Made by a program: the position numbers and the translations under genes | Source of the DNA: an uncultured bacterium | GTDB lineage: Bacteria; SAR324; XYD2-FULL-50-16 | NCBI GenBank assembly: GCA_965602905.1 | Contig: CBFCZY010000016.1 | Coordinates: 2,280 to 66,279 of the forward strand | Reading direction: 5' to 3' | Length of the DNA: 64,000 nucleotides | Shown: piece after piece, positions 2,693 through 53,985 of the stretch | Numbering within the stretch: the stretch's first letter is position 1 | Layout: each line of letters starts with the position of its first letter | Notes under the pieces: model-generated | The model's database searches: none | Told to the model about the DNA's origin: nothing | Seen by the model: only the letters and a program-made list of their open reading frames with translations

Positions 2693-2696
2693 AGGA

Positions 2697-29035: not shown

Positions 29036-30154
29036 CTATAAATTTTTACTAATAACAACTCGCCAGCCAAGACCCTCGTAGGTTTCATAGCCTGGGGTTT
29101 CAGCTTGGGCGACCAGTTTATTGTTCATCAGTTGATAGCCCTGGCCTTTTGGAATTTCAATATTGATTCGGTCACGTAAAAACCCCCTATGCTTTGTTGG
29201 CGCAATAATCAGCCCTGATTTTGCTAAGATCAAGCACTCAACGTCTTTGCGTTCACTTTCTTGCAGCCTGACCGAAGCCAAGGCTTCATCGGCAAGGCTT
29301 TCCCAGTTCATAAATACAGCAATCACGCCGATGACTTTACCATTTTCCTCACCATTTTCACGAATGGCAGTGGTATAGGGAATGGCTACCTTGGAATCCA
29401 GTTTAGAGTTGATATGGACATCACCGACAAAATAATCAGAACCGTCGGTGGTGTTCCTAGCTTGGATGAACCAATTTTCTGCCGCAACCGAGTGGTTAGT
29501 TAGGTTGAAACTTTCTGGTCTGCCGTTGGCGATGACCTGTCCATTTGTATCCATCAGCCAAATATCGTGATAAACGGTGTATGAATCTAAGATCACGCCG
29601 AGGCGTTTTGCAGCCCAGTCTTTATCATTTAGAGCATCAACAATAGCTGTATCTGTTGCCCACCAGCGAACATCACAGGTCCGCTCATAAAGGTTGCGGT
29701 CTACAATATCGATTAAATTTAGTGCCAGATCTGCAAACCTGCTTCCATTAATTTCATTGTCAATATTTCGGCTTTCTTTAGCCCGAGAAATGAGGCTTGC
29801 TATTACGTTTTTGGTGAAGGCATTGGATGCATTGTGGATGGTAAGGGCCAATTTCTTCATCTCTTCTGCTACGACCCCAAAACCCTTGCCTGCTTTGCCC
29901 GAGTTGGCAGCCTCGATCAAGGCATTTAGGGCCAGCATATTGATTTGAGTCGATATGTTCTCAAGGTCTTTATTGAATTGTTCGGCCTTGATGGCAGTGG
30001 ATTCAATGCCTTGGATTAAATGTTCTGAGGCACTAGCGTCAGATTGGGTCTCAGTCACTTGGGTTTGATCTTCCATGATTGGGGCAGGGGGATAGATTAG
30101 TACAATGCATAAATCCACTTTGGAAAGGGCTATGGACCTAGTTGCAAAATTCAT
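29036..30154 (-). CDS. Soluble protein with a minimal MCP signalling-tip segment followed by a C-terminal Cache/PAS-like sensory domain
   Basis: 372 aa with no TM segment. [33 protein letters not shown] matches the conserved MCP hairpin tip (LLALNAAIEAARAGExGRGFAVVAxEVRxLA), but only ~140 aa precede the sensory domain ([42 protein letters not shown]). Start is uncertain (30154 or 30076). Confidence 0.65.
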
Positions 30155-30516: not shown

Positions 30517-31953
30517 TTATATTTTGTTTGGCTGCAAACAGTCTGCTTGACCCGTTACATCTGGGCAGAAGCTAGCTCTGTTTTGATCATAAAGATAGGG
30601 CCTTTTGGGGTCTCCTGTTTCTCGAAAGCAGGTCTTAAAGGGCGAACTATGCCAATTAAATTCGTGCGCTTTTGGCGGAATTCTTTCTAGTCGGCAGATG
30701 ACAGAGCGATGAAGTTTAAGCTTTCCTTTGTTGTACTTTGTATCTGAATAAGCCCAAAGATTTCTTTTTAGATTTTTATAAATAATGCCCACAGCTTGTT
30801 TTTTCGGATCATTAGAAGGAGCATAGGGATTTGCTTTTATACAATTTTCTTTTGGGAATATCTCATGGGAGTTTTCTGCCACTTGATCAAGCATCCATAG
30901 TAAAGAATTATTACCGATACCATTTTCAGAAATATGTGGTTTATATCCCATTATTTTATTGTAATTGTACTTAAAAAATCCTTGATCTGTGCTTTCAATG
31001 GTCCCACCGACATCAGCATGTGCCCCTGAAAACCAAACTTCATTAACATGCTCATCAATTGAAAACAAAACCTCATTACCATGCTCATCAATTTTTTGAG
31101 TGGGGCAATCGTCGGTTAAATGTTGCCTTGTCAAGAGGATGGGAGTGAAGATTTGGGCTCGGTTATCATCAAGAGAAACTGCATGGGCAGCTTTTTCCAC
31201 GTTGCAAAGTTGGTCATTGTACCTGCTATTTGGGTTTTCAATATTTTCATCATAATCAGGAATGCCAAGAGCTTCAACTGTATCCCAAAGCCCTAAAAAA
31301 CTAACTGTTACAGGTGCTAAATAATGATTTTTATCGGGGTTTTTGGGGTCATAGGGCTTTGTGTTAAATTCCTTGGCCACTGAAAGCCTTCGTTCTTCTA
31401 AGGTAGCCTCTTTTTGCTTAAAAGCCTTGTAGACTTTAGAGGCCAGATAGTCGGAGTTTGCCTCTGTTTTATTAATTTCCTCTTGGTAAGTTGGGATGCC
31501 TGCCGTATGCAACAAAGAGGCAAGAATTCTAGCTTGGTATGCCCCTCTGCTGAAACCAAAAATATAAACTTTATTGCCTTTGTTTTTACTAAAATTTTGT
31601 ATCAAAAAAGAATAGGCTTTTCGTACCCTATAGGCTGTACCCCAACCTAGAGCATTACCTAAAATTTTTCCCCTTGCCCCGACTCCTTCAATGTAAAAAG
31701 AGCTGGTATTGGCACCTTGGTTTTTTTTGGCGAGCTTATAAAGTTTATAGATATTGGTGTTGTGGGCTGGGTAGTTAGATGTGCCATCAAAAAAAATGAT
31801 AAAATTTCTAGGATTGCTTTTGTTAACAAGTGTTTCTGAAAGCTCAGGTGAAGGGGGGCAGAGTGAGTCTACCCCAACAAAAAACAAATAAACCACGAAT
31901 AGGAGTGGAGCATATTTTAGCACTTTAAATTTTAGTAATTTTTGAACATTCAT
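30517..31953 (-). CDS. Secreted DUF2235 alpha/beta hydrolase (T6SS Tle1-type phospholipase family fold)
   Basis: 478 aa with an N-terminal signal/anchor (LLFVVYLFFVGVDSLC). DUF2235 hallmarks are FIIFFDGTSN, IEGVGA, GFSRGAYQAR (GxSxG) and FLGLWDTV. The gene and its flanks look AT-richer than neighbouring genes by eye. Confidence 0.75.
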   Translation of the reverse strand: MNVQKLLKFKVLKYAPLLFVVYLFFVGVDSLCPPSPELSETLVNKSNPRNFIIFFDGTSNYPAHNTNIYKLYKLAKKNQGANTSSFYIEGVGARGKILGNALGWGTAYRVRKAYSFLIQNFSKNKGNKVYIFGFSRGAYQARILASLLHTAGIPTYQEEINKTEANSDYLASKVYKAFKQKEATLEERRLSVAKEFNTKPYDPKNPDKNHYLAPVTVSFLGLWDTVEALGIPDYDENIENPNSRYNDQLCNVEKAAHAVSLDDNRAQIFTPILLTRQHLTDDCPTQKIDEHGNEVLFSIDEHVNEVWFSGAHADVGGTIESTDQGFFKYNYNKIMGYKPHISENGIGNNSLLWMLDQVAENSHEIFPKENCIKANPYAPSNDPKKQAVGIIYKNLKRNLWAYSDTKYNKGKLKLHRSVICRLERIPPKAHEFNWHSSPFKTCFRETGDPKRPYLYDQNRASFCPDVTGQADCLQPNKI

Positions 31954-34364: not shown

Positions 34365-36164
34365 ATGCGATTTTTAATTTTTCTTCTTCTTTTTCCCAGC
34401 CTCCTTATGGCCGCCGTAGAGCCTAAAATCTTGGGGCCGGGGAAATACCTTTACCCCAACGGTGACCTTTACCTAGGTGAATTAGACAAGGGGAAGCGAG
34501 AAAATTACGGTATCATTAAATTTAAAAATGGCAACAAATACGAAGGCAGTTTTCGCCACGATAAAATCGCTGGAGAAGGTGTGATGACCTATGCCAATGG
34601 CGATTCCTACCAAGGGCAATTTAAAGATGGAAAAAAGCATGGCAAGGGCCTTTATAAACATACTGGCGGTGGGCTATACAAGGGTGCATTTAAAAAGGGA
34701 TTCCGCCATGGGCAGGGGCTTTTTACTTCCCCCAGCGGGGATAGTTACGAGGGGATTTTTATCCAAGGCAAAAAAAAGAATTTTGGCCTCTATCGTTTTA
34801 AGAATGGAGACCGATACGAGGGAACTCTAGTTAAGGGAAAAAAGTTTGGTAAGGGCACCCTTGACTACGCAGGTGGAGAACACTTTGAGGGCATTTTTAA
34901 CTTTGATCTGAAAGAGGGCAAGGGCCTAACTCGATTTGCCCAAGGTGGCGGATACCAAGGGGATTACAAAGACGACCAAATGCATGGGCAGGGAATCTTA
35001 AAAGAGGCCAATGGGCAGGTTTACCGAGGGCAATTTCACAGAAATAACAAACAGGGCCAAGGTCGCTTGGACTTTCCCAATGGGGACTTTTATATTGGTG
35101 GCTTTTTTCGTGGTCAGTATCATGGCCAAGGAAAGCTAAACCTTCACAGTGGTTCTTACCAACAGGGAAAATATAAAAAGGGAGTTTTACATGGGCAGGG
35201 CCACTATAAAATGGCCAGCGGTGAGGAGTACCGAGGTGGATTTCTCTTTGGCGAAAAATCAGGAAAGGGGAGTTTATCTTTAGCCAATGGCGACAGCTAC
35301 AAGGGAAGGTTTTTTAAGGACCTTTTTCATGGCAAAGGTGTTTATGTCTATACCAAGGGGGATAAGTATATTGGCTCCTACCTTAAGGGTGTAAAAACAG
35401 GCTGGGGGAAATATCTATTTGCTGGTGGAGACAGATACCAAGGTCAATTTAGTAAAAATCATTTTAGCGGCAGAGGGGTTTTAAATTATCATGCTGGTCA
35501 TGTCTACAAGGGGCAATTTAAAGAAAGCTTGGCCGAGGGTAAGGGTAGCTTTCGCTATGTTTCTGGTGACCATTACCAAGGTCAGTTTAGTCGGGGCCTC
35601 TCTCATGGGAAGGGTGTACTAAAATATAAACATGGAGACCGCTACAAAGGTGATTTTCATAGGGGGTTTTTTGGCGGCAAGGGGAAGTACTTTTTTATAA
35701 ATGGAAATAGCTACCAAGGTGAATTTTCACGGGGCCGCATGGAGGGCCAAGGGCTATTTAAATTTAAGAAGGGAGACAGCTACCAAGGGACCTTTAAAGA
35801 TGACCAATTTGCAGGAAGTGGGAAATATAAAATGGCCCGAGGCGCAGAATACCAAGGTGACTTTTCAAAAAACAACTTTCATGGGAAAGGCCTTTGGGAG
35901 AGTCGCAGGTCAGATAAATATAAAGGAAATTTCACCCAAGGCCTTCCCCAAGGAAAGGGACAGCTGAGCTACGCCAATGGCGACCAGTATGAAGGCGACT
36001 TTGATATGGGCAAGCGTGAGGGCACAGGTTACTACACTTGGAAAAAAGGTGGCAGGTATCATGGTACTTTTAAGGCCGATAAAAGGGATGGCAGGGGAAG
36101 ATACATCCTTAAAAAAAGGCTCGAAAAGGGTGAATGGCACAACGATATTTTAATTGGAGAATAG
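34365..36164 (+). CDS. Secreted MORN-repeat protein (24 contiguous repeats)
   Basis: 599 aa. Signal peptide MRFLIFLLLFPSLLMA, then 24 back-to-back 23-residue units of the form Yx(F/Y)xNGDxYxGxFxxGxxxGxGx with no spacers. It starts 3 nt after the MltF-like stop. Confidence 0.85.
   Translation: MRFLIFLLLFPSLLMAAVEPKILGPGKYLYPNGDLYLGELDKGKRENYGIIKFKNGNKYEGSFRHDKIAGEGVMTYANGDSYQGQFKDGKKHGKGLYKHTGGGLYKGAFKKGFRHGQGLFTSPSGDSYEGIFIQGKKKNFGLYRFKNGDRYEGTLVKGKKFGKGTLDYAGGEHFEGIFNFDLKEGKGLTRFAQGGGYQGDYKDDQMHGQGILKEANGQVYRGQFHRNNKQGQGRLDFPNGDFYIGGFFRGQYHGQGKLNLHSGSYQQGKYKKGVLHGQGHYKMASGEEYRGGFLFGEKSGKGSLSLANGDSYKGRFFKDLFHGKGVYVYTKGDKYIGSYLKGVKTGWGKYLFAGGDRYQGQFSKNHFSGRGVLNYHAGHVYKGQFKESLAEGKGSFRYVSGDHYQGQFSRGLSHGKGVLKYKHGDRYKGDFHRGFFGGKGKYFFINGNSYQGEFSRGRMEGQGLFKFKKGDSYQGTFKDDQFAGSGKYKMARGAEYQGDFSKNNFHGKGLWESRRSDKYKGNFTQGLPQGKGQLSYANGDQYEGDFDMGKREGTGYYTWKKGGRYHGTFKADKRDGRGRYILKKRLEKGEWHNDILIGE
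34443..36135 (+). repeat. 69-nt-period coding repeat array (MORN units)
   Basis: The 23-aa periodicity of the encoded protein was counted by eye (24 full units plus a partial 25th). The nucleotide copies are diverged. Confidence 0.7.
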
Positions 36165-36357: not shown

Positions 36358-38685
36358 TCAGGGATTGTGAAGTAATTTGGTAAGGGTATCTATGAGCTTT
36401 AATTTTTCTAAAGGCTTTTGCAGGAAGGATGCAAAGTTGACGCTATCGATACGGCTGTGGAGCTCGTGTTGTTGGTAGGAGCTTAGAGCAATGATTATAG
36501 ATTTAAAATTGGGCTGTTGCTGCAACTGTTCGGTCGCCTCAATGCCATTGAGGATGGGCATATCTATATCCATAAAAATAAAGTCGTAGTCCTTTGCCTT
36601 GGCTTTTTCAACGGCCTCCAAACCATTTTCAGCTACATCAAAATAGATGGAAAACTTGAGGAGGGTGTTTGCTGTAGTTTCACGGTGTAGCGCGTTATCA
36701 TCGGCAATCAAAACCTTGAGGCCGCTAAAATCAATGTTTTCCGCCAAGGTTTCTTGGGCTTTCGCCTCTACCCTTGGTAACTGGAACCAAAAATTGCTCC
36801 CCTGGCCTAGGGTTGAGTCAACGCCGATGTGGCCCCCATTTTTTGTAACAAATTCTTGGCAGAGGATTAACCCTAAGCCTGAGCCAATATTGTTGGCTGT
36901 GTCGGGGCTGCTTGCCACTTTTTCATCAATTTTAAAGAGGCGATCTAGGATCTTTTTTTCAATCCCTCGGCCATTGTCTTTAATAGATACGTGGGCTTGC
37001 CCATCTTTTTCTTGAGCGCCAATTTCAATGGTTCCCTTTTCAGGGGTAAATTTTACGGCGTTAGATAGTAGATTCCGAATGACAGTTGTCACCATGGATA
37101 TATCGGCATGAACAGGCAAACGCTGACCTAGCCTCATCTTTAAAGTGATGTGCTTTTGGGCCGCTTGGGGCTCTAAAAAGTTCACCACCTCTTCAATGGG
37201 CTGATTTAAATCAAAATAGGTCGGTTGAACTTCTAAGTGGCCCGATTGACTGTGCGCCCAATCTAAAAGATTGTTTAGCATTTGGCTGGTGCTTTTTGTA
37301 GTTCGCTGGGCGGCTATAAATAGGTCTTCTTCAAGGTCACTTGCCGACTTTAATACATCGTTGAAGATCACAGAAAGGCTGCCAATGGGCCCACGTAAAT
37401 CATGGCTAATGATAGAGAAAAACTTATCTTTGGTATCATTGGCTTCTTTCAGCTCTAAGGTCCTTTCTTTTACTTTACCTTCTAATTCCAGCGCATAGCT
37501 TTTCCCTGCCTCTACCAAGTTTTTTTGAGCGATAATTTTTTCTTTTGAAAGGCTGTTGATTCGGTCGGCTAGGGCAATAGAAAATATAATAAGCTCGACC
37601 AAACAGAAAAACATCTGGAAAAAACTACCCTCAGTTATCGTCAGGTCGACCAAAGGGTAACCGACGAGCATTAAATTCATCAGGGTATGGGCGATCAAAA
37701 ATCCGATCCAACCTAAAAAGAAAAAGACAACAGGCCGTTTTATGTATTTGTAGCATAATAGGCAATTGCCGATCAGAACCACAGGCAGAAATTCCCCCCA
37801 TATGAAAATGGTATCTGAGATGTAATGCAGTGGAAAAATAAATAACAGTAGGAATAACAAAAAGTTAAAAGAGGCATAAACTATATTCACCCTGTGCCAG
37901 CGGGGGCAGTGAGTTTTTGTATGTAGCAATTCCGTGGAAAAGAGCACGATTAAGGAGGCCGTGAAAGCGCCGCTACTGAATCCAATAAAGGGGTTTTGCA
38001 TGGGTTCCCAAAGGTAGGCCATACCGAGGCCTGAGATGGAACCCAAATAGACACCTAAAGAAAGAGTAGTGCCTACATAAAACAAATAGCTAATATCACG
38101 GAGCGAGAAAAATAGAAAAAGGTTGTAGGCCGCAAGAGCAAACAGCGCCCCGTAATAAAGTGTGATGAGGATTTGGGTTGCCAGTTGATCTTCCCAATAT
38201 TCTTCTTCACTACTTAAAATAAGTTCCAAGATAAAACCAGCCCCATGGGGGGCGGCGCTGCTTGCGTAAAGGTCGATTTTCTGGTTTGGCTCTAAGGTAA
38301 TTTGGTAGAGTTGTTCCCATGAGCCCTCTCTCCAAAGATCCAGTTTCACAGGTTCACGGCCTTCTTGGTGAACCCAGGCATGGGTAATATGATTGGAAAG
38401 GCTAACTTGCAGAATTCGCTTTAGGGCTTTTGCAGAGTTGTTTTCTAATTGCACCTTAAACCAAGCGGTATCAAAGCTGATGCCAATAATTCCAATACGA
38501 CGATTCCAAGGTTGAAAGCGTTTTTGTGTCTGTTCCTGTAAAACGTGGTTTATTTCTAGAGGTTTTTCTTTTGCTTGGAGAAAGTAACTCCCCGTGTGGG
38601 CTAGGTACAGTTGTTCCTGCTCTATATTGAGAGCCTGAGCTGAAATAGAGAAACTAAATAATAAAAGAAAAAAAACTGTTCGCAT
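36358..38685 (-). CDS. 7TMR-DISM hybrid sensor histidine kinase/response regulator
   Basis: Signal peptide MRTVFFLLLFSFSISAQA (ATG 38685; the track starts at TTG 38712), an extracellular DISMED2-like domain and seven TM segments. The H-box is FFSIISHDLRGPIG, the N-box is VIRNLLSNAVKFTPEKG and a G-box is GSGLGL. The C-terminal REC shows VLIADDNALH..DFIFMDIDMPILNG. Confidence 0.85.
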   Translation of the reverse strand: MRTVFFLLLFSFSISAQALNIEQEQLYLAHTGSYFLQAKEKPLEINHVLQEQTQKRFQPWNRRIGIIGISFDTAWFKVQLENNSAKALKRILQVSLSNHITHAWVHQEGREPVKLDLWREGSWEQLYQITLEPNQKIDLYASSAAPHGAGFILELILSSEEEYWEDQLATQILITLYYGALFALAAYNLFLFFSLRDISYLFYVGTTLSLGVYLGSISGLGMAYLWEPMQNPFIGFSSGAFTASLIVLFSTELLHTKTHCPRWHRVNIVYASFNFLLFLLLFIFPLHYISDTIFIWGEFLPVVLIGNCLLCYKYIKRPVVFFFLGWIGFLIAHTLMNLMLVGYPLVDLTITEGSFFQMFFCLVELIIFSIALADRINSLSKEKIIAQKNLVEAGKSYALELEGKVKERTLELKEANDTKDKFFSIISHDLRGPIGSLSVIFNDVLKSASDLEEDLFIAAQRTTKSTSQMLNNLLDWAHSQSGHLEVQPTYFDLNQPIEEVVNFLEPQAAQKHITLKMRLGQRLPVHADISMVTTVIRNLLSNAVKFTPEKGTIEIGAQEKDGQAHVSIKDNGRGIEKKILDRLFKIDEKVASSPDTANNIGSGLGLILCQEFVTKNGGHIGVDSTLGQGSNFWFQLPRVEAKAQETLAENIDFSGLKVLIADDNALHRETTANTLLKFSIYFDVAENGLEAVEKAKAKDYDFIFMDIDMPILNGIEATEQLQQQPNFKSIIIALSSYQQHELHSRIDSVNFASFLQKPLEKLKLIDTLTKLLHNP

Positions 38686-39127
38686 TGACTTGGTAGAGGG
38701 CTGGTGAGTCAAACAAAGATTACAAACTCTTTAAGAATCTGATCTGTAATTTGTCATACTTAAGGATTGATTACAATAGCCCCAATGAAAAATCAATTTC
38801 CTCTTAAATTGGCCACAGGTATAGAGTAGCAGGAAAATAATTTGTTTTGGTAGGTAGGGGCATTTTTCATAGCGATGCTCATTTATTGAGGCCTGTCTTG
38901 GTTATGAACTCAGGCTGTTAGCTTAGCCCAATTTAGGTGACTAAATCAAGCAATTATTGGCGGCTAGCCTTTGGTGTGACCTCTGTAACAGGGTAGCTAC
39001 CCCCATTTTTTGAAGCCTATTCTTGGCTGTTGAGGTTCGCTGGTAGATCCTTTATAAAATGCCTTAGTATATTGGGCCTTTTTTATATGGCCTCCCTGCA
39101 AGTTACAGGAGATTAAAAAGATCTAGA

Positions 39128-39157
39128 AAACCAAAGAAAAAGCATAATAAGATGCTT
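39128..39157 (-). terminator. Weak candidate intrinsic terminator downstream of the corrinoid-linked kinase operon
   Basis: On the minus strand: AAGCAT-CTTATT-ATGCTT followed by TTTCTTTGGTTTT, about 108 nt after the kinase stop. The stem is only 6 bp. Confidence 0.3.
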
Positions 39158-39264
39158 AAACCACCCAAAAGGAAAATCTGATCTAGACCTTTAGGAGGTT
39201 TTTAAGTACCAAGTTTAGCGCCCAAGGAGACTCAAATCCACTAAGCTGCTACCCCTTATTGCTG

Positions 39265-41589
39265 TTAGTTGGGACTATGGTAGTTAGTGAGAATTTGGTA
39301 TAACAATTGTGGTTTGACAGGTTTGGCTATATAGCCATTCATCCCACAGGCTAGGCAGGCTACTTTGTCTTCGGCAAAGGCATTGGCTGTCATGGCTACG
39401 ATGGGAATAGCAGGGTTCCTTACCGCATTTACCCCTGCACGGATGGCCTCGGTTGCCTCAAGTCCATTCATAACGGGCATTCTAATATCCATTAAAACCA
39501 GATCAAAGTCTTTTTTCGCTAAGATATCTAAGGCCTCGGCTCCATTTTCTGCAAAGCCCAGCTGAACCCCAACTCGGCTTAGCATCTTTTCAACCAGCAT
39601 TTTACTCAATTTGTTATCGTCTACGACCAACACAGTTAGGCCTGTTAAATCAATATGAGTTGGATCGACTTCTTTTCCTAGATGAGGGTCTTCTGTGGTG
39701 GGTAAAGTCAAAGGGAAACTAAATTGGCTCCCTTGGCCAAGCTGACTCACTAGATCTATTTTGCTACCCATTAGCTCTACTAAACGCTGGGAAATATTAA
39801 GGCCCAGACCTGTGCCGCCATATTTAAAATGAATATCCAAATCCGCTTGGGCAAAGCTTTTAAAAATCTTCTCTTGGGACTCAGTTGCAATGCCAATGCC
39901 TGTATCTATGACGGTAAATAGAAGGGTAACCTGTCCATTTTCTTCCCCTAAAGATTTTACATGCAAATCCACTCCCCCTTGGTGAGTGAATTTTAGAGAG
40001 TTGGAAAGAAGGTTGATCAAAATTTGATTCAGCCTAAGAGCGTCTCCCATTATAAATTGAGGCAGGTCAGGGGTAATGTTTACAGTAAAGCTCAGCCCCT
40101 TTGCATTAAACTCCTTGGCAAATAAGGACTCTAGAGACTTTAAAAAATGAGGTAAGTCAAAGGGGTGTTGGTCTATCTGTAGTTTCCCTGATTCAATTTT
40201 TGCGAGATCTAAGATGTCATTGATCAATTCCAAAAGGATTTGGGAGGATTGCAATACAATTTCTAAATTTTGGGTCTGGTCTTGGTCTAAGGGGCTGTCT
40301 AAGACCAAACTGGTCATGCCCATGATCGAGTTCATAGGGGTGCGTAGATCATGGCTCATTTTCGCTAGAAAATCAGATTTGGCTCTATTGGCGAGTTCAG
40401 CCTCATTTTTGGCCTGCAATAGATCTTTGGTGCGCTCGGTAACCCGTTGTTCTAATTTCTCATTCATTGTCTGCAATTGCGCCTCAATGTGCCTTTGCTC
40501 CTCTAGGCTAATGGACAATTGCTGTTTAGAGTCCTCTAGCCTTTTATAGGCCCTGCTACTGGCAATGGCCATAGCAAGGACAGGCGTGAGACTTAAAATT
40601 AGATTAAGGTAGTGGCTTTGGTGCTCAGGGTGCTGTAAGCCTGCAACCTCTAGTATAGCCAAGGGTTCTTCTTGGTAGGTGAGGGTAACTTGGAAACCCT
40701 TCTTGGTTATCAGATAAGATTTTGGCCAATTTTTAGGTTCATTGCTTGCTTCATTGGTTGCTTTAGGTGGCTTAGTGGTATTGGGCCAACCTTGGTACCA
40801 AAGAGGCGCCCCTTCAGACCAAGCCTGCAAGCTAATTTGCTGGGGGGCGATTAAAGACATGACCAGTTGAATCAATCGTTGGGCCAAGTCCTCTTCAGGT
40901 TGGTACCCCGCTAGACTGGTAAAGAGGTCCATCATCATAGCATATTCGGCTAATTTAACCGCCGATGATTTTTTAGTTTCTTTTAACTTTTTCCCAAGCT
41001 GTTTGTGTGTTCTTTCATCTAAAAGATGTTGAATTTTTAGTTTAAGGAAGCTGGTTCCAAGGGGAATTCGCAAAACAGGGATGTCTAAAAACTCACCAAA
41101 GGCAATTAGTTTTTCTTCAACATTGGGGTAGCAGAGACTATCAAAAAGCACCAAGATGCTGGTTGATTCTTTAAAGAACAATTGTGCCGTTTCTTGGTCG
41201 AAGCCCGTGCGAGAAATGTAATCTTGCCACTCGTCAATCATGCCTGCCGAATAGATATGGGCGCCCTGAGATAAGTAGTATTCACTTAGGCTTTCAGGGG
41301 CTAAGAGGTTGAAACAGTGGCCTGCAATGGAGCAAATTTGCACGTCAGGTTGCAAAAGTGATTCAGGTTTTAACTCGGCAACGCAGGCACTACTAATGAC
41401 AAGCGTATCCCCCTCATGGTCTTGAGCCTGCTCAAAAAGCGACTCTAATTTTTCCCGACCTTTACTAGGCTGGTCGTATTCTAAAGGCAGGCTAATATTT
41501 ACAAGGTCTGGATCTCCTAACTCCTCTAGGACTTGGGTCATTTCTCGTGATAGGTAACCGCAGGTCATAATACGAAGTGGCTCCTCCAT
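39265..41589 (-). CDS. Cytoplasmic hybrid sensor histidine kinase/response regulator with an N-terminal DUF1638-like domain
   Basis: 774 aa with no TM segment. The ~200-aa N-terminal Cys-containing domain ([34 protein letters not shown]) is tentatively DUF1638-like. A GAF-like region and a coiled coil follow. The H-box is [18 protein letters not shown], with HATPase motifs [12 protein letters not shown] and GGTGLGL. REC shows [35 protein letters not shown]. Its ATG directly abuts the upstream stop (TAAATG). Confidence 0.85.
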
Positions 41590-42624
41590 TTAGCCCTCTC
41601 CTAGTGGGTATTTCCCCCATTTGTGGGCAGCGGCAACAATTTGATGAAGGACAGAGTCTGAAACTTGCCAAGGGATTTCCCCGTGATTATCGGCCAAGAT
41701 AAAACCACCGCCCTGGCCTGCCTTGGTGATGCAGGCTTTTACATTTGCCTCAGTGGTGGCTTGGTCCCAGTTGCGCATCTCCACACCGTTTAGGGTGCCC
41801 AAGATCGAAATCTTATCTTTGCAAGTTTCTTTTAGAACGACCAGATCATCTTCCATGCTCGCTCCTAAAACCGCAGCGCCTGACTGGGCAATATCACCTG
41901 CAACGGCCAAGCTTCGGCCCGAAGCCAAGTGAGTGGCTACAGGGCCATTTATGGCGGCAATCGTTTTTTGGGCGACAATATAGCCTGTCTCTAAAAATAG
42001 CTGTCGTGGTATGATTGTCGGTGAGGCGATAGGGTCAAAATAACAAATAGCCGTTGCCCCTGCTGCTAGTTGAGCGTTGGCCCATGCAGTACTAAAGGCT
42101 TGGTTTTTTTCCATTAAGCGCCAGAAGACGGGCCTGTCTTCTAGCATTAATTGCAGGTAGCCCTCAAAACCCATTTGCATGACTGGAATAGAAAAGGGTG
42201 AGATCGCAACGGCGATGATGGGCGCTTCATCCCCTTTTTCTTTGATGATGCGGATGGATTCTAAAACCTCCATTAGTGGCCGTGAGTCTTCTACTGAAGG
42301 TGGTTGAAACTTCTCAAGATCATCCAGGGTAAAGATCGGCCTGCCAGCATTGGGTGGGCCATCGGTGCGAAAAAGAACATCCCCACCCATAGCTTGCGTT
42401 TCAATGGGAGCATAGAAAAAGGGGTAGTAGCAATCATGCTGGAATTTTTCTTTCATCCGCAATTGCCCCTCTGCGACCTGTGAACCTTTAGAGAAGTAGT
42501 CCTCAATGGAAAGATCTAGCTCTTTGGCCCCATGCATGGTCAAAAATAAAAACACAGGAACACGATCAGGTTCTTGGTGGCCAAGGGTTGTTAGCACTCG
42601 CTGTAAGGAAGTCATTTCGCTCAT
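41590..42624 (-). CDS. Uroporphyrinogen-decarboxylase (URO-D) family protein, MtaA/CmuA-like corrinoid methyltransferase homologue
   Basis: 344 aa. LQRVLTTLGHQEPDRVPVF is the typical URO-D/MT2 N-terminus, and the protein has (beta/alpha)8-like length and pattern. At the position where I expect the MtaA H-x-C-G zinc motif the sequence reads THLASG. ATGA overlap with the corrinoid-protein gene. Confidence 0.7.
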   Translation of the reverse strand: MSEMTSLQRVLTTLGHQEPDRVPVFLFLTMHGAKELDLSIEDYFSKGSQVAEGQLRMKEKFQHDCYYPFFYAPIETQAMGGDVLFRTDGPPNAGRPIFTLDDLEKFQPPSVEDSRPLMEVLESIRIIKEKGDEAPIIAVAISPFSIPVMQMGFEGYLQLMLEDRPVFWRLMEKNQAFSTAWANAQLAAGATAICYFDPIASPTIIPRQLFLETGYIVAQKTIAAINGPVATHLASGRSLAVAGDIAQSGAAVLGASMEDDLVVLKETCKDKISILGTLNGVEMRNWDQATTEANVKACITKAGQGGGFILADNHGEIPWQVSDSVLHQIVAAAHKWGKYPLGEG

Positions 42625-43262
42625 GGGGCCTCCAAAATTAATTTTTCAAGTGCGCCCACTACTTCTGAGGCCGTGCCTGCGGTTGCAGTGGCCCCAACTT
42701 CTTGCCAAAGATTTGGGTCAAGGCGAAAGGGAGCCCCGCCCACAAGGATCTTAATGGGGTAGTTTTCTTCCTTAAAATGCGCAACAAGTTGCCCAACGGC
42801 GAGGGCGGAAGGCAGCATTAATGCAGAGATCAGTAGGATTTCAATCTCTTCTTTTTGAACTCGATGGGCTAAGTCCTTTACCGCAACCCCAAGGCCAAAG
42901 TCTTCCACCTTGTAACCTGCGGCGCCCAAAGCGGACTGGACAATCCTTTTACCTAAACCATGGAAATCTTCCAAAACAGCAATGGCCATTTTTGGCTGTG
43001 TCGGTTTTTTCTGGGTCCCACTTGAGGCAAATTCGCCAATGATCTCTTCACAAATGCGCCCACTCATATAGAGCTGTGAAAGAGCGGCATCCCCATTTTC
43101 CCAGTCATTGCCAATGGACTCAAAGGCTTGAACCAATAAATGCTCTGCTTTTTCCTGAGAGTTTTTGGCAATGGCCTCATTAAGGATATTGCGAACCTGA
43201 ACTCTTTCAATATTGATCAGAGCTTCTTTTAGCTCTTCTATTTCAATGGATATTTGCACCAT
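42621..43262 (-). CDS. Corrinoid (cobalamin)-binding protein: B12-binding_2 helical cap + B12-binding Rossmann domain
   Basis: 213 aa. It carries the full base-off/His-on signature: EDFHGLG (DxHxxG), ISALML (SxL) and VGGAPF (GG). The N-terminal ~85-aa helical cap domain resembles MtaC/MtmC/MetH cap. Confidence 0.8.
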   Translation of the reverse strand: MVQISIEIEELKEALINIERVQVRNILNEAIAKNSQEKAEHLLVQAFESIGNDWENGDAALSQLYMSGRICEEIIGEFASSGTQKKPTQPKMAIAVLEDFHGLGKRIVQSALGAAGYKVEDFGLGVAVKDLAHRVQKEEIEILLISALMLPSALAVGQLVAHFKEENYPIKILVGGAPFRLDPNLWQEVGATATAGTASEVVGALEKLILEAP

Positions 43263-43402
43263 TTTACTTTTTTGATTGAGGTACTCTTGAGGATGGGAAC
43301 CTCGTCTTTCTTCAGGTTCCTTTTAGGATTACTATACACATAAATAGCCTTAGAAGCAATTCTTGGCTCATCTACAAGGCAATGTTTTTGGAAGATAGGT
43401 CC

Positions 43403-43924
43403 TTATCGACGGTTCAAAATTCGACTTAGGGCAACAGGCGTGATGCCAAGGTAAAGAGCAATCTCCTTTTGGGGGATTTTTTCTAGCAGGTCAGGTGTTC
43501 TGTCTTTGATCAAATCAAAGCGTTCTTGGGCCGTGCAGCAAAGAAATTCGTATTCTCGTTGCTCTTTTTTCAAAGCCAGCTCTAAGAGAAAATTAAAGAG
43601 GGTTCCTGTAATTTCCTTTTCCTCTAAACCCAGCTTCATGAGGTGGGAAAAGTCGATTTGAATGAGTTCTGACTCTTCATAGCAAAGAAGCGAGAAGGAA
43701 TTCCCTTGGCCCTTGTATGCCGCCTTTAAGCTACCCATTACATCTCCAGGAAGTAAAAAGGACTTGATCATTTCCTTCCCTTCTAGGGTCAAATAGTAGG
43801 CTTTTAGTAACCCTTTTTGGATAAAGTATAGAGCTGTGTCTTGGTCCCCTTGCCGAAAAACATGGGCACCCTTTTCCATGAGTACAGGTTTCCCATATTC
43901 TTTTAGATAACCTTTAAAATCCAT
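43403..43924 (-). CDS. Crp/Fnr family transcriptional regulator (cNMP-binding-like domain + C-terminal HTH)
   Basis: 173 aa. Shows VFRQGDQDTALYFIQKGLLKAYYL (beta-roll) and a C-terminal QKEIALYLGITPVALSRIL HTH. No N-terminal Fnr Cys cluster is present. Confidence 0.75.
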   Translation of the reverse strand: MDFKGYLKEYGKPVLMEKGAHVFRQGDQDTALYFIQKGLLKAYYLTLEGKEMIKSFLLPGDVMGSLKAAYKGQGNSFSLLCYEESELIQIDFSHLMKLGLEEKEITGTLFNFLLELALKKEQREYEFLCCTAQERFDLIKDRTPDLLEKIPQKEIALYLGITPVALSRILNRR

Positions 43925-48771: not shown

Positions 48772-49944
48772 TTAGGTGCCGAGAGCCCAATAGGTATGGA
48801 CTAGTTCTTTGAATCCCTTAGCCTGAACAGTGCCCCGAGGCTCACAGGATATTTGATCCTTCACTAGTTCGTAAGTGGATTCCGAAATTAAGATCTGCCC
48901 ATCATTGGAACTGGCCTCTAGGCGAGCGGCCAAGTTCACAGGTGCGCCAACGATGGTATAATCCATACGGTGTTCCGACCCAAAATTCCCTACAACACAG
49001 TCCCCTGTGTTGACCCCAATCCGAATTCCGATACCCATTTCTTTGGCCTTATCTCGCATTTCTAAGGACATTAAAAGGCAGTTTATAGCATCTTCTTTTT
49101 CCCCACGGGACTCAGGGTCACCAAAAAAGATCATCACGCCATCACCAATAAATTTATCAATAGTAGCTCCATGGTTAAGGGCGATTTGAGCCATTTCATT
49201 AAGGTAGCTATTCATCCACAGGGTTAAATCAGGGAGATCCATCGATTCTGAGGTAGCTGTAAAATCCACGATATCAGAGAAAAAGACAGTTAGTTTTTTA
49301 AGGTTGGTTTCGATTTTAACATCCCTTATCCCTTCAAAGATCGAATCATAGATCTGAGGAGAAAGGTATTTTGATAATTTTGAGGCTAAAAGTTCAATTT
49401 GTATTTTCTTCTCTTTGATCACAGCCGATTTTTTATAAATGGTATAACCAACCATCATTAAGAATGAAAAAAGAGAAAGGGCGCAAAGGAAAGAGGTTAA
49501 AAGGTCTGTTTCAGGGATAAACTCAAAACCAGTTGTGACAACAGCAAGGCCCATCCCTAGGGCTAAGGCCAGGGCGCCTTTGGCAAACATCATTAAACCT
49601 GCAGAAATATTATTCATGCAAGCCATTGAAACTAGGGCCGTTGTAATCCACAGGGAAAAGGACATATGGCCAACACAAAAGCCAACACAGAGGGACTCAT
49701 ACAGAAAATTTCTTAATTCTGCCTGCTTAGAGTTGGAGCTATATTTTGCGAGGAGGTAAAAAATATGGGGGCAAAGAAAACAAAAGAGGACTAAAAGAAC
49801 CCAAGAGGTTACTTCCATTTCTCGAAAATATGCCGTTGGGGCCAAGATCACAAAACCAAAGAGATAACCAATAGTACGGTTTTGGTAGGCTAGTTTATAT
49901 AGCGGCCTACGGTAAAACTTGGTTTTAGATGTCGATGGATTCAT
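48772..49944 (-). CDS. Membrane-anchored class III adenylate/guanylate cyclase
   Basis: 390 aa with ~6 N-terminal TM segments, then LTVFFSDIVDFTATSE..KFIGDGVMIFFGDP..IRIGVNTGDCVVGNFGS..YTIVGAPVNLAARLE. Confidence 0.8.
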   Translation of the reverse strand: MNPSTSKTKFYRRPLYKLAYQNRTIGYLFGFVILAPTAYFREMEVTSWVLLVLFCFLCPHIFYLLAKYSSNSKQAELRNFLYESLCVGFCVGHMSFSLWITTALVSMACMNNISAGLMMFAKGALALALGMGLAVVTTGFEFIPETDLLTSFLCALSLFSFLMMVGYTIYKKSAVIKEKKIQIELLASKLSKYLSPQIYDSIFEGIRDVKIETNLKKLTVFFSDIVDFTATSESMDLPDLTLWMNSYLNEMAQIALNHGATIDKFIGDGVMIFFGDPESRGEKEDAINCLLMSLEMRDKAKEMGIGIRIGVNTGDCVVGNFGSEHRMDYTIVGAPVNLAARLEASSNDGQILISESTYELVKDQISCEPRGTVQAKGFKELVHTYWALGT

Positions 49945-50059: not shown

Positions 50060-50944
50060 TTAAGCGTTAACGAATTGAATTTTTTTAATCAAATAGTCTT
50101 TTCTTGATCGCCACTCAATGCCTCTCTGATTCCAGAGTAACAGCTTATTGGCATTTTCTGAACCGTAGTTGGCCCTTAGATATAACTGCGAAAAGTAGTC
50201 TTTCGATCTATTACTCAACTGCTTTACCCCCACACTTAGCATCATTAACACCTCCATTAGAATCATGGTCAACCATTCTTGAGGAAAGGAGGAAAGGCTG
50301 TGCATTTGGGGTGCAATCTTATTTTTTAAACAAGCAGCCAGTTGCCTCTTATCCTTATCCGATTCCACTAGTGAAACCGCATGTTTCACATACCTTTGTT
50401 CCCAAGGGTCAATTTGGTGATCGAGCAAGACAGTTGAAACTAAAGTCAGGGCGTAGCGATACCTTTGGCTTGCATCAAATAGTTCTACAGGAACTTTCCC
50501 AACAGGTTTGCTTTTGTGGTCTTGCCCATGAACAAAAAAGCTTCGGCCATGATACCAGGCTAAACCATCGCTGGTCCATTGAGATAAATCTGCCTTGATG
50601 CTCGTTGGGAATTTAAATCTTTCTGCGAGCATCTTGAGTAATTCACGCTCAGGGGCCGCAAGATGGACATCACAAATTAAGATCTCCACGACTTCGATAA
50701 AGATCGCAACTTGGTAGTGAGGATAAAATTCAGGTGGAGGGCCTAGTTTGGGAGGTTGGTGTTTTTGGATCGACTCCAATAACTCGGCTTTTATAGGTGA
50801 ATCTTGGATCAGCTGCATCATCCCTTTCAAGAAAGAAATTTCAGCCTCTTTGATTTTAGAATCGGCCAAGATGGCAACGATGATCAGGCGGACATACCAT
50901 TGTTTTTGTTCTTCGTTAAAAGCACTGACAGGTACTGCAAGCAT
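50060..50944 (-). CDS. Hypothetical protein with two tandem TerB-like domains; paralogue of 23467-24333
   Basis: 294 aa, collinear with the other copy along its whole length. Compare FNEEQKQWYVRLIIVAILADSKIKEAEISFL, FIEVVEILICDVHLAAPE, DGLAWYHGRSF and YRYALTLVSTVLLDHQIDPWEQRYV with the equivalent strings in the 23.5-kb copy. Confidence 0.5.
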   Translation of the reverse strand: MLAVPVSAFNEEQKQWYVRLIIVAILADSKIKEAEISFLKGMMQLIQDSPIKAELLESIQKHQPPKLGPPPEFYPHYQVAIFIEVVEILICDVHLAAPERELLKMLAERFKFPTSIKADLSQWTSDGLAWYHGRSFFVHGQDHKSKPVGKVPVELFDASQRYRYALTLVSTVLLDHQIDPWEQRYVKHAVSLVESDKDKRQLAACLKNKIAPQMHSLSSFPQEWLTMILMEVLMMLSVGVKQLSNRSKDYFSQLYLRANYGSENANKLLLWNQRGIEWRSRKDYLIKKIQFVNA

Positions 50945-51663: not shown

Positions 51664-53106
51664 ATGACCAATTCTTCTCCCCTTGAGTATGACTACTCTG
51701 TTGCCAAAGGTTTTATCATCTCCGCTCTTGTCTGGGGTGCAGTGGGTATGACTGTAGGTGTCTGGATCGCTTTAGAGTTAGCATTTCCAGTCCTTAACTT
51801 CGATACCCCCTACTTGAGTTTTAACCGACTGCGGCCGCTTCACACTAATGCTGTGATCTTTGGTTTTACCCTGTCTGGTATTTTTGCCAGTTGGTATTAT
51901 ATCTCACAACGAGTGTTGAAAGTTCGCATGGTTTACCCTGGCCTCGCAAAGTTCCATTTAGTATTATACAACTTAATCATTGTCCTTGCTGCAATTACGC
52001 TTTTAATGGGGGTAACCTCTTCTAAAGAGTATGCTGAGTTACAGTGGCCTCTTGATATTCTTGTAGTGGTCATGTGGCTTAGTTGGGGTGCCCATATCTT
52101 TGCCATGGCAGGGGCTAGGAAAGAAAAAACCCTTTATGTTTCTATTTGGTATTACATGGCCTCCTTTTTAGGGGTGGGCATGCTTTATATCTTTAACAAC
52201 TTCGCTATCCCTACAAGGCTTTACTCAGGGGTCGGCAGTGTTATGCATTCGGTTTCTGCTTATTCGGGGACAAACGACGCTAATGTGCAGTGGTGGTATG
52301 GCCACAATGCTGTGGCCTTTGTTTTTACCGTGCCTATCATCGCCATGGCTTACTACTTCCTCCCAAAGCAAGTAAACCAACCTATTTGGAGCTACAAGCT
52401 TTCTCTTTGGAGCTTCTGGGGTTTGATTTTTCTCTACCTTTGGGCTGGCCCACACCATATGTTATACTCAACTATTCCTGATTGGGTGCAAACCTTAGGT
52501 ATGCTCTTTTCCCTCGTGTTAATCATTCCCAGTTGGGGCTCTATGATTAACTTGATGCTCACAGTGAGTGGAAAGTGGGAACAACTGAAAACAGATCCAC
52601 TTTTAAAATTTATGGTGATTGGTTCTACTTTCTATGGTTTTTCAACCTTAGAAGGTTCTGTGCAAGCCATTAAGTCCGTGAATGCTCTGGCGCACTTCGG
52701 TGATTGGATTATTGGGCATGTTCACAATGGTGCACTGGGCTGGGTAGCCTTTATGATCATGGCTGCAATCATGCACATGGTGCCTCGAATTTGGAATACA
52801 GAACTCTATTCCTTGAAGATTGCAAACCAGCAATTTTGGCTGCAAACCATTGGCATTGTCTTTTACTTTTCCAGCATGTGGGTAGCAGGAATAACCCAAG
52901 GTATGATGTGGCGAGCTACAGACCAATGGGGCAACCTAGCCTATAGTTTCTTAGATACAGTTAAGGTCTTGTACCCCTACTGGAGTCTTCGGGCATTCGG
53001 CGGAACTCTGTTCTTAATAGGTTTCTTTATGTTTGCTTACAATATTATTAAAACCATCCAGTTAGCGCCTAAGGCCAGCTTGGATAGTCAACCTGCAACA
53101 GCTTAA
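51664..53106 (+). CDS. ccoN: cbb3-type cytochrome c oxidase subunit I
   Basis: 480 aa with 12+ TM segments and heme-copper His ligands in the typical contexts (RPLHTNAVIFGF, WWYGHNAVAF, GPHHM, HFGDWIIGHVHNGALGW). Confidence 0.9.
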   Translation: MTNSSPLEYDYSVAKGFIISALVWGAVGMTVGVWIALELAFPVLNFDTPYLSFNRLRPLHTNAVIFGFTLSGIFASWYYISQRVLKVRMVYPGLAKFHLVLYNLIIVLAAITLLMGVTSSKEYAELQWPLDILVVVMWLSWGAHIFAMAGARKEKTLYVSIWYYMASFLGVGMLYIFNNFAIPTRLYSGVGSVMHSVSAYSGTNDANVQWWYGHNAVAFVFTVPIIAMAYYFLPKQVNQPIWSYKLSLWSFWGLIFLYLWAGPHHMLYSTIPDWVQTLGMLFSLVLIIPSWGSMINLMLTVSGKWEQLKTDPLLKFMVIGSTFYGFSTLEGSVQAIKSVNALAHFGDWIIGHVHNGALGWVAFMIMAAIMHMVPRIWNTELYSLKIANQQFWLQTIGIVFYFSSMWVAGITQGMMWRATDQWGNLAYSFLDTVKVLYPYWSLRAFGGTLFLIGFFMFAYNIIKTIQLAPKASLDSQPATA

Positions 53107-53117
53107 TAGGTGAAAAA

Positions 53118-53795
53118 ATGTTAAATAAATTTTTCTCATACATCGAACAGCGACCTTTCCACTTTGGCTTGGCTATCTTTTTAGTCATTGTCGTTGGTGG
53201 GGTTGTGGAAATCTTTCCCAGCTTCGTGGAAAACTCCCGACCAAACCAAGGTGAAAAGCCCTATACTGCTTTGCAGTTAGCAGGTAGACAGATTTATATT
53301 CAAGAATCATGTAACGCCTGTCACTCCCAGTTAATCAGGCCTTTTAAGTCGGAAACCGATCGCTATGGCAAATTCTCCACCAGTGGAGAATATGCTTACG
53401 ACCGCCCCTTCCTTTGGGGTTCCAAACGTACTGGGCCAGATCTTTTACGTGTGGGCAACTATAGAACGACCGACTGGCACGAAAATCATTTTCGCAACGC
53501 TGCCTCTGTTTCCCCTGGAACCAATATGCCTAATTTCCCTTGGCTATTTGAATGGAAGGTGGATACCGACACAGTATATGCAGAAATGTACACCATCAAA
53601 GGGGTCTTTAATACTCCCTACGACCAGGAAGGAATGCCCCCACTTGGGAGTCTAGAAGATCTGAAAAAACATATCATGGCTGAAGCTGAGTTGATTGCCG
53701 AAGACATGAAAGGGCAAGACGTAAAGGATGCCATTGCAAAAGGGGATATCCCCCAAGTGGTAGCCTTAATTAGTTACTTAAACAGTTTAAAGTGA
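53118..53795 (+). CDS. ccoO: cbb3-type cytochrome c oxidase subunit II (mono-heme)
   Basis: 225 aa with an N-terminal TM anchor, the CNACHSQ heme site and GPDLLRVGNYRTTDWHENHFRNAASVSPGTNMP. Confidence 0.9.
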   Translation: MLNKFFSYIEQRPFHFGLAIFLVIVVGGVVEIFPSFVENSRPNQGEKPYTALQLAGRQIYIQESCNACHSQLIRPFKSETDRYGKFSTSGEYAYDRPFLWGSKRTGPDLLRVGNYRTTDWHENHFRNAASVSPGTNMPNFPWLFEWKVDTDTVYAEMYTIKGVFNTPYDQEGMPPLGSLEDLKKHIMAEAELIAEDMKGQDVKDAIAKGDIPQVVALISYLNSLK

Positions 53796-53802
53796 GGTTG
53801 TG

Positions 53803-53982
53803 ATGGAAATGGATTGGAGACAGTGGCTTTATGCCGCATTTGTATTTTCCATGCTGGTGAGCATGTTGGGCTTTGCCGCCTACCTGTGGCTTGATAAAGG
53901 CCGAGCCAGCAGAATTGAGCAAGATGGGATGATCCCCTTGCAGGATGAACCCGTTCACCCTCTTCTTAAAACTTCGGAGTAA
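53803..53982 (+). CDS. ccoQ: Small single-TM protein at the CcoQ position of the cbb3 operon
   Basis: 59 aa with one TM (LYAAFVFSMLVSMLGFAAYLW), located between ccoO and ccoP. The assignment is positional. ATG 53803 is preferred to the track's GTG 53800 on RBS spacing. Confidence 0.55.
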   Translation: MEMDWRQWLYAAFVFSMLVSMLGFAAYLWLDKGRASRIEQDGMIPLQDEPVHPLLKTSE

Positions 53983-53985
53983 CCC

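Follow-up and report, generated by a model that had tools for sequence, protein, structure and literature searches.

A conserved trio of a corrinoid protein, an MtaA-like partner and a DUF1638-GAF signalling protein, and its possible role in cobalamin-based sensing

Corrinoid proteins of about 210 amino acids, in which a helical cap and a Rossmann domain hold cobalamin His-on, are encoded beside partners of the uroporphyrinogen decarboxylase (URO-D) fold in the MtaA-MtaC and MtbA-MtbC systems, in bacterial O-demethylases and in glycine-betaine systems. Known B12-dependent regulation runs through riboswitches and light- or B12-responsive transcription factors (CarH, LitR, AerR). This report concerns three genes in 64,000 nucleotides of contig CBFCZY010000016.1 from an uncultured SAR324 bacterium; the whole stretch is called the window, and positions are numbered along it. 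The genes encode a corrinoid protein, a URO-D-family protein nearest to MtaA, and a soluble hybrid histidine kinase with a DUF1638-type N-terminus. The original prediction, made from the sequence alone, saw in this trio a corrinoid module used as a sensory input and thought a catabolic role less likely. Gene order read in both directions, the lack of catabolic partners and the swappable outputs of the signalling protein all support that view.

Compared with the MtaA-MtaC-type systems, the trio comes without a substrate-specific methyltransferase (MT1), a second methyltransferase or RamA, and its URO-D partner lacks both zinc cysteines. Both proteins score far under the family cutoffs, and a signalling gene comes next in 76 of 77 loci. 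A second comparison is with the roseobacters, which are not anaerobes and which encode DUF1638 near a separate B12-binding protein. In the aerobe Phaeobacter inhibens, the DUF1638 gene PGA1_c13340 adjoins the gene of the B12-binding subunit; methionine synthesis by the split, B12-dependent synthase depends on it, and a RamA-like protein co-occurs with it (PMC5764234). In Ruegeria pomeroyi, a DUF1638 gene is induced alongside MtgBCD (PMC12478193). The original prediction had described DUF1638 as encoded next to corrinoid methyltransferase genes in anaerobes and as having no known function; these two papers supply some functional data, and the family is not restricted to anaerobes. In the roseobacter systems DUF1638 is a stand-alone enzyme accessory that goes with a RamA-like protein, whereas in the trio it is fused to GAF and output domains, has no RamA-like gene nearby and matches PF07796 modestly.

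CarH, LitR and AerR resemble the trio in using a cap and Rossmann B12 module as the perceiving element of regulation. They are single polypeptides, or antirepressors that act on DNA-binding partners, and sense light through the Co-C bond, whereas the trio has a separate B12 protein and a methyltransferase-like partner and would report to kinases or c-di-GMP enzymes. The junction between GAF and kinase resembles that of DosS/DevS, redox and gas sensor kinases that bind haem in the GAF domain without accessory proteins; in the trio, DUF1638 comes ahead of the GAF domain, and the protein depends for its context on the two genes upstream of it. Sensor kinases beside corrinoid methyltransferase genes are also known, namely the PocR-domain kinase MecA of the anaerobic dichloromethane mec cassette and, in Methanosarcina, MsmS/RdmS. 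Their sensor domains (PocR; haem-GAF/PAS) are unrelated and have no DUF1638 fusion, and they regulate complete catabolic systems, so that the neighbouring genes are targets and not inputs.

The open-access full-text literature, including every paper there that mentions DUF1638, holds no description of the trio (subscription journals were outside this scope), and it is absent from a survey of signalling proteins with B12 domains. The same literature describes no kinase with such an input arrangement, as had been supposed. The trio is apparently a large, phylogenetically broad and uncharacterised three-gene sensory module.

Conservation of the trio

The three open reading frames (ORFs) lie on the minus strand and are coupled as described earlier, by an ATGA overlap at the first junction and a stop codon abutting a start codon at the second (Table 1). 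The distribution of the trio was examined by a scan of GTDB genomes anchored on the URO-D profile; the sensor region has no stretch conserved enough to anchor a scan. The URO-D subfamily is present in at least 581 GTDB species genomes. They belong to Desulfobacterota, Chloroflexota, Alpha-, Beta-, Gamma- and Zetaproteobacteria, SAR324, Bacteroidota, Verrucomicrobiota, magnetotactic Nitrospirota, Campylobacterota, Spirochaetota, Bacillota, Riflebacteria and Cloacimonadota, and include one Methanosarcinaceae metagenome-assembled genome (MAG). In protein databases, 3407 proteins match the URO-D protein at E <= 1e-10. Most of the best 120 matches are 55-61% identical to it (about 58%) though they come from many phyla, and the closest, at 97%, lies in ENA metagenome contigs.

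Gene order was counted in the 80 best-scoring loci. The corrinoid gene lies directly upstream of the URO-D gene in 78 of them, and thus two genes upstream of the sensor, which ties the PF07796 proteins to a corrinoid protein. A gene matching the sensor profile lies directly downstream of the URO-D gene wherever there is enough sequence to tell, with a single exception (76/77). The reverse also holds: all four sensor proteins found by profile alone have the corrinoid/URO-D pair directly upstream. The ATGA overlap between corrinoid and URO-D genes is kept in 62 of 84 related loci, with GTGA in 6 more, and the estimated sensor start falls within about -30 to +20 nt of the URO-D stop in 64 of 69. 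Seven neighbourhoods were examined one by one, at 97% to 57% identity, among them those of Mariprofundus aestuarium, Ca. Thiodiazotropha, an Anaerolineales isolate and a genome labelled Aminicenantes. The order corrinoid protein, URO-D protein, DUF1638-containing signalling protein was found in all seven, with otherwise unrelated flanking genes. Such recurrence of coupling and gene order across phyla is beyond chance, and the trio is co-inherited as an ordered, translationally coupled unit in hundreds of species of many phyla.

The unit ends with these three genes. All other ORFs from 86 loci were clustered, and no fourth shared family was found. Linked to the trio in these loci there was no RamA-like activase, MT1, pterin methyltransferase, B12 transporter or synthesis gene, and no conserved DNA-binding regulator. 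The window itself agrees with the prediction on this point: Pfam scans of 42 of its 45 ORFs of at least 150 amino acids, plus the four genes of the trio/Crp region, found no DUF4445/RamA, MtaB, MttB/MtgB or pterin-binding family. The unscanned ORFs are short and overlap larger genes (2619-3110; 50104-50598; 36059-36331-type overlaps). The Crp-family gene 140 nt upstream of the corrinoid gene is positioned as noted earlier and makes a fourth co-directional minus-strand ORF. It stands upstream of the trio in the same-species contigs L001 and L002 only and is absent in L003 to L010, so it was rejected as a component of the system. The Crp-like protein is short, with a clear cyclic-nucleotide-binding domain and a partial HTH_Crp_2 match at its extreme C-terminus (profile 18-45 of 70, below cutoff).

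Three carriers are worth noting for their own sake. Azoarcus sp. KH32C, a cultured denitrifier, has the trio on its 738-kb plasmid pAZKH (NC_020548.1, 271288-274755), where formylmethanofuran dehydrogenase A/B and PQQ-dehydrogenase relay genes on its flanks give it a one-carbon (C1) metabolism context and a second 'ATP-binding protein' gene comes after it. The annotations of its three genes (AZKH_RS24050, 24055 and 26485) are generic ('cobalamin-dependent protein', 'uroporphyrinogen decarboxylase family protein', 'ATP-binding protein'). A plasmid search for canonical stand-alone DUF1638 proteins returned only this one further member of the sensor type. In the Methanosarcinaceae MAG (JASMTL010000189.1, locus L081) the trio has a divergent sensor, matched in its GAF part only (E 3e-18) and fused to a kinase; the trio here either truly belongs to an archaeon or reflects an error of binning. 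In an Opitutales MAG the pair is preceded, at a distance of about 5 kb, by a separate ORF that resembles DUF1638 (L035:3-506; sensor profile 56-186, E 4e-16), and the contig ends 28 nt past the URO-D gene, short of the usual sensor position.

The three proteins

The corrinoid protein was identified correctly from its motifs. Both of its Pfam domains pass their cutoffs (Table 1), and the B12 signature, D99-F-H101-G-L-G104, S146-A-L148 and G175-G176, is at least 95% conserved at each position in 81 orthologues. The cap has conserved residues of its own (W54, G57, L61-S62-Q63, Y65-M66, G68 and E72). The nearest solved structures are MtmC (3ezx) and the corrinoid protein of a D. hafniense O-demethylase (4jgi), both at E 2.9e-13, and the protein is predicted to hold cobalamin base-off/His-on. 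It has the anatomy of a TIGR02370-type protein, a cap and a Rossmann domain with DxHxxG, SxL and GG, but stays below the curated NCBIfam cutoffs for TIGR02370 (pyl_corrinoid; 78.3 vs 215.3 bits) and MtgC (68 vs 310) and has no MT1 partner. The CarH model NF052513 gives 23.2 bits (cutoff 400; E 3.4e-5), and there is no helix-turn-helix domain. The CarH cap carries the motif W-x9-E-H; here W54 is followed by L64-Y65 at +10/+11, not E-H.

The URO-D protein matches PF01208 over its full length (164 bits). Its best match in the PDB is MtaA (4ay7, E 5.5e-10), and HemE structures reach just E 1e-6 to 3e-4. It has the TIM-barrel fold and the adjacent corrinoid gene expected of an MtaA/CmuA protein, but the zinc site differs. 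In the 4ay7 alignment MtaA 'vlHiC-Gn' stands against 'atHlasGr', and MtaA 'apgCGiap' against 'adnHGeip', so that the H-x-C and the C-terminal cysteine of MtaA read H232-L-A234 and H314. The THLASG seen at this place in the original prediction was therefore correctly located. T-H232-x-A-S-G (A234 included) and D-N-H314-G-E-I-P-x-Q are invariant in all 121 subfamily sequences, every one of which lacks both zinc cysteines, and therefore their loss is a family trait and not decay. Across phyla, 95 of the 344 positions are at least 97% conserved in these sequences, and such constraint speaks for an exact role in catalysis or binding. The curated cutoffs were failed for MtaA/CmuA (TIGR01463, 95.1 vs 235.4 bits), the MtaA equivalog (71.9 vs 400), MtbA (65.8 vs 600) and HemE (TIGR01464, 45.3 vs 302.95). 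The protein belongs to a sharply delimited, zinc-cysteine-less subfamily with MtaA as its nearest relative. The URO-D assignment stands; the label 'MtaA/CmuA (MT2) type' overstates it.

The signalling protein is a soluble hybrid histidine kinase, as predicted. It has no transmembrane segment (the top 19-residue hydropathy, 1.58, falls in the last GAF helix), and its HisKA, HATPase_c and REC domains are strong matches with acceptor residues in place. The H-box is SHDLRTP (H413), the N box lies at 526, G1 at 562 and G2 at 591, and the receiver aspartate is in MDIRMP at 700. It has no Hpt domain.

The AlphaFold2 model of its sensor region (pLDDT 81) begins with an alpha/beta domain (residues 1-178), continues with a long helix (180-227) and ends in a GAF fold directly ahead of the kinase core. 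The alpha/beta domain of the window protein, taken alone, matches PF07796 (DUF1638) at 17.9 bits and E 0.003, over profile positions 14-158 of 161, under the Pfam gathering cutoff of 27 bits. Four relatives that align over the whole sensor region pass this cutoff (27.8, 34.9, 47.0 and 47.6 bits). Among orthologous sensors 53 of 58 match at E <= 0.001 (best 1.9e-14), and precomputed annotation places PF07796 on 16 of 16 sensor-profile hits. The assignment to DUF1638 holds by transitive homology, and the window protein would be a divergent branch of the family.

The original prediction took the first 200 or so residues for the DUF1638 part, and the conserved unit is longer. A word-indexed search with residues 1-390 gave no match and missed the protein's own sequence too, so that an exhaustive HMMER search was needed. 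With residues 1-345 against 1.84 billion representatives, this search returned 1012 clusters (50% identity) at E <= 0.001, 747 of them at E <= 1e-10. Nearly all matches span the full 340 or so residues and lie at the subject's own N-terminus, in proteins of 265-1685 amino acids. The conserved sensor unit is therefore about 345 residues long (DUF1638, long helix and GAF) and not about 200.

The sensor family has four cysteines in its DUF1638 part, at positions 10, 38, 69 and 92 of the window protein, which are conserved in 89-96% of 150 sequences and each lie just past a beta-strand in the model. A metal or iron-sulfur (Fe-S) site on these cysteines is a plausible candidate. Position 38 is Tyr in the window protein and in its two closest relatives, and all three carry a Cys at 153. 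A compensatory exchange was considered (Fisher p = 1.6e-4) and rejected: all co-occurrences are in one clade, and the other members that lack Cys38 also lack Cys153. The swap is a single evolutionary event and therefore not statistical evidence, and it is kept as a lead.

Orthologous sensors vary only after the GAF domain. Pfam searches of 58 of them found HATPase_c in 40, HisKA in 27, GGDEF in 11, REC in 10, PAS in 7, HisKA_2 and Hpt in 3 each, HWE in 2, and EAL and SpoIIE in 1 each. Some, of 368-449 amino acids, have DUF1638 as the sole Pfam domain and no output domain. The phosphorelay output that had been proposed is only one of several in the family. One subset lacks DUF1638, is rich in Desulfobacterales, and has helix-GAF, a coiled coil and a Cys-rich motif without a Pfam match. 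Desulfobacterales loci of this kind, with neither DUF1638 nor a kinase, are L017:7075-7797, L020:7074-7784, L031:7096-7860, L036:3376-4170, L039:7071-7781, L043:7096-7866, L045:7154-7882 and L069:7062-7730. Their C-terminal motif, about 55 residues rich in Cys and His (LPICxHCKKIRDDKGYW...FSHGICxxC), gave no Pfam match in the two that were scanned and may be an uncharacterised zinc-ribbon-like output domain.

Sensing, catabolism and other readings

A constant N-terminal module joined to interchangeable transmitters is the hallmark of an input module. Together with the near-obligate coupling to the corrinoid/URO-D pair and the lack of partners that would complete a methyl transfer, the swappable outputs make a catabolic reading unlikely. 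The pair is thus supported, by comparison of loci and domains, as a putative input device for signalling. Because the outputs are mostly two-component and c-di-GMP proteins, the response would concern how the cell behaves or lives, and not one particular catabolic operon.

The best explanation of the whole is probably that the three genes form one self-contained sensory unit, in which the corrinoid and URO-D pair sets the input and the DUF1638-GAF sensor reads it. The corrinoid protein would hold cobalamin base-off/His-on, and the MtaA-like partner would dock on it as MtaA does on MtaC. Through methyl exchange with some common small molecule, the partner would then set the state of the cobalt, for which methyl-Co(III), Co(I) and oxidatively inactivated Co(II) are envisaged. 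Binding of the DUF1638-GAF module to the corrinoid protein, or to both proteins of the pair, would depend on that state, much as reductive activators of corrinoid proteins discriminate cobalt oxidation states. The change would be relayed through the C-terminal helix of the GAF domain to the HisKA/HATPase core, and in the window kinase this would lead to autophosphorylation on His413 and passage of the phosphate to its own receiver.

The favoured signal is how much methyl donor or acceptor is available, which the corrinoid would report through its methylation state. The second choice is redox or oxidant status through formation of Co(II), possibly with a metal or Fe-S site on the four DUF1638 cysteines. 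An enzyme-made GAF ligand, light and B12 supply would follow, in that order. More generally, and only tentatively, enzyme-catalysed methyl (or electron) transfer onto protein-bound cobalamin could be the primary sensing event, with DUF1638-GAF as the corrinoid-state reader that passes it to two-component and c-di-GMP signalling in at least ten phyla, and with DUF1638 generally recognising the state of a corrinoid protein.

Several observations weigh against the reading of the trio as one sensory unit. In a Prolixibacteraceae MAG (L072:5261-7035) the pair is followed by a convergent unrelated gene and no sensor, and in a Caldilinea MAG (L042:1223-4831) the URO-D and sensor genes are present with a GNAT-like gene in the corrinoid gene's place. 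The 80 loci are the best-scoring of at least 581, and the rate of synteny may drop in remoter members. About 14% of the sensors found (11/76) lack the DUF1638 half and keep the helix and GAF, and therefore DUF1638 is not the sole reader, if it is a reader at all. In the window protein itself the DUF1638 score is under the Pfam cutoff, and Tyr replaces the second conserved Cys. Since the Zn-Cys ligands that MtaA needs are absent from the URO-D protein, its methyl-transfer ability can be presumed only from family relationship. Finally, no reductive activase that could recycle Co(II) is linked to the trio in the 86 loci.

Other explanations were weighed against the same evidence. The pair could be an ordinary metabolic methyltransferase pair, with a kinase that senses something else through DUF1638-GAF and regulates the operon or is co-regulated with it. 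Regulators do often adjoin corrinoid methyltransferase operons, as the PocR-type kinase MecA does in the mec cassette, DUF1638 is found in metabolic corrinoid systems, and the Azoarcus KH32C copy lies amid C1-metabolism genes. This explanation is unlikely, however: no MT1, MT2 or activase is linked in the 86 loci, and a methyltransferase with its carrier alone makes no net reaction. No DNA-binding response regulator is conserved nearby, the outputs include GGDEF, EAL, SpoIIE or none, and translational coupling in a fixed order across phyla is unusual between a regulator and its target. It is somewhat less probable that the pair makes or consumes a small molecule bound by the GAF domain, so that a metabolite is read and not the corrinoid state. 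A diffusible product would need no stoichiometric, translationally coupled co-expression, the corrinoid-linked DUF1638 is present in 53 of 58 members, and there is no candidate ligand.

A B12 light sensor is quite improbable. Here methyl- or adenosyl-cobalamin would be photolysed, the URO-D protein would re-methylate it to reset the system, and the sensor would read dark and light, as in CarH, AerR and LitR. The cap and Rossmann module is like that of CarH, and some hosts are gradient organisms with light responses, such as the relatives of Beggiatoa, in which these are well known. Against light speak the habitats of many hosts, which are permanently dark and anoxic (Smithella, Syntrophomonadaceae, Desulfobacterales, groundwater Chloroflexi, deep-sea Mariprofundus), and the absence of the hallmarks of CarH, both the cap motif and the score (23 vs 400 bits). 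It is still harder to see the kinase as a sensor of cobamide availability that tells apo from holo corrinoid protein and so reports B12 supply. The B12-binding residues are strictly conserved and the locus has no cobalamin riboswitch, both of which would suit it, but the strongly conserved URO-D partner and the DUF1638 cysteines would be left unexplained, and no B12 transport or synthesis genes are linked. Scarcely credible, in the end, is an ATP-driven corrinoid reactivase, an analogue of RamA/RACo with no part in signalling, even though RamA-like activases accompany DUF1638, a B12 enzyme depends on it, and some members have DUF1638 and HATPase_c only in Pfam. The window protein has a full HisKA H-box and a receiver, and receiver-domain genes come next in several loci. 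This role is disfavoured because orthologues carry outputs that are not ATPases, namely GGDEF, EAL or SpoIIE, and some have no ATPase at all.

Surroundings of the trio and significance

Near the operon, searches for RNA elements, including a cobalamin riboswitch, gave none at E <= 1, and promoter and terminator scans at the locus did not rise above the level of shuffled sequence. The kinase gene has neither an Hpt domain nor a cognate regulator next to it. The 552 nt past its stop (38713-39264) have no ORF of at least 35 amino acids and no Rfam match. The closest relatives of the window kinase carry a second REC, which accounts for their extra length; the gap shows no trace of it and no resemblance to it, and the idea of a lost C-terminal domain or pseudogene remnant was rejected. 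Beyond the gap, at 36358-38712 on the minus strand, is a 7TMR-DISM hybrid histidine kinase (784-792 amino acids, with its relative). In the 74%-identical relative (L003/L004, 4587-6965) such a kinase stands upstream of the trio. This adjoining kinase could be a lineage-specific phosphorelay partner, or a coincidence.

The window is unusually rich in signalling proteins (Table 1). They include a 1030-residue HAMP-GAF-Hpt-HATPase protein (3890-6982, plus strand), which holds the only Hpt domain seen in the window. An ORF at 29036-30154 (minus strand) has MCPsignal at residues 48-123 and dCache_1 at 178-368, the inverse of the usual chemoreceptor order; both matches are partial, and dCache_1 is under its cutoff. 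Further genes encode a homologue of the type VI secretion system phospholipase Tle1 (30517-31953, minus strand) and a 599-residue protein made nearly wholly of MORN repeats with a signal-peptide-like N-terminus (34365-36164, plus strand). The cbb3 oxidase of the host, on which the original prediction had drawn, is encoded as CcoN, CcoO and CcoP at 51664-54888.

Table 1. Features of the trio, its proteins and other signalling genes, by position in the window.
Feature	Position	Strand	Basis or remark
Corrinoid (cobalamin-binding) protein, 213 aa, first gene of the trio	42621-43262	-	ORF and Pfam
Helical cap domain (B12-binding_2), residues 8-75	43038-43241	-	PF02607, 36.7 bits
Rossmann-type B12-binding domain, residues 94-205	42648-42983	-	PF02310, 60.4 bits; His101 as predicted lower ligand
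ATGA, corrinoid-gene stop overlapping URO-D-gene start	42621-42624	-	Read from sequence
URO-D-family MtaA-like protein, 344 aa	41590-42624	-	ORF and Pfam
TAA stop of URO-D gene abutting ATG of kinase gene	41587-41592	-	Read from sequence
Soluble hybrid histidine kinase, 774 aa (DUF1638, helix, GAF, HisKA, HATPase_c, REC)	39265-41589	-	ORF, Pfam and AlphaFold2 model
DUF1638-type alpha/beta domain, residues 1-178	41056-41589	-	Cys10, Cys69 and Cys92 conserved; family Cys38 is Tyr here
Long connecting helix, residues 180-227	40909-41052	-	AlphaFold2 secondary structure
GAF domain, residues 232-345	40555-40896	-	Pfam does not detect GAF in the window protein
HisKA dimerisation/phospho-acceptor domain, residues 403-468	40186-40383	-	Pfam, 73.9 bits
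HATPase_c catalytic domain, residues 515-629	39703-40047	-	Pfam, 83.5 bits
Receiver (REC) domain, residues 653-767	39289-39633	-	Pfam, 93.5 bits
Crp/Fnr-like protein, 173 aa, outside the conserved module	43403-43924	-	cNMP_binding and partial HTH (Pfam)
dCache-PAS hybrid kinase	9253-11856	-	Window signalling protein
EAL-CBS-GGDEF protein	12194-13972	+	Window signalling protein
Second 7TMR-DISM kinase	21405-23381	+	Window signalling protein
MASE2 adenylate/guanylate cyclase	48772-49944	-	Window signalling protein

If the reading of the trio as a sensory unit is right, it would add to bacterial signal transduction a new class of input that feeds kinases and c-di-GMP enzymes, and bacteria would perceive signals in a way not recognised before. 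The chance that this mechanism of perception is new in kind is substantial. DUF1638 would gain a testable role, relevant to marine methionine and glycine-betaine metabolism: if the family reads corrinoid state, its need in split methionine synthase would be explained. Cultured carriers such as Azoarcus sp. KH32C and Mariprofundus aestuarium make experiments possible now. The module points to an apparently universal cue for bacteria of sediments and redox gradients, among them sulfur oxidisers, sulfate reducers, magnetotactic bacteria, iron oxidisers and methanotrophs.

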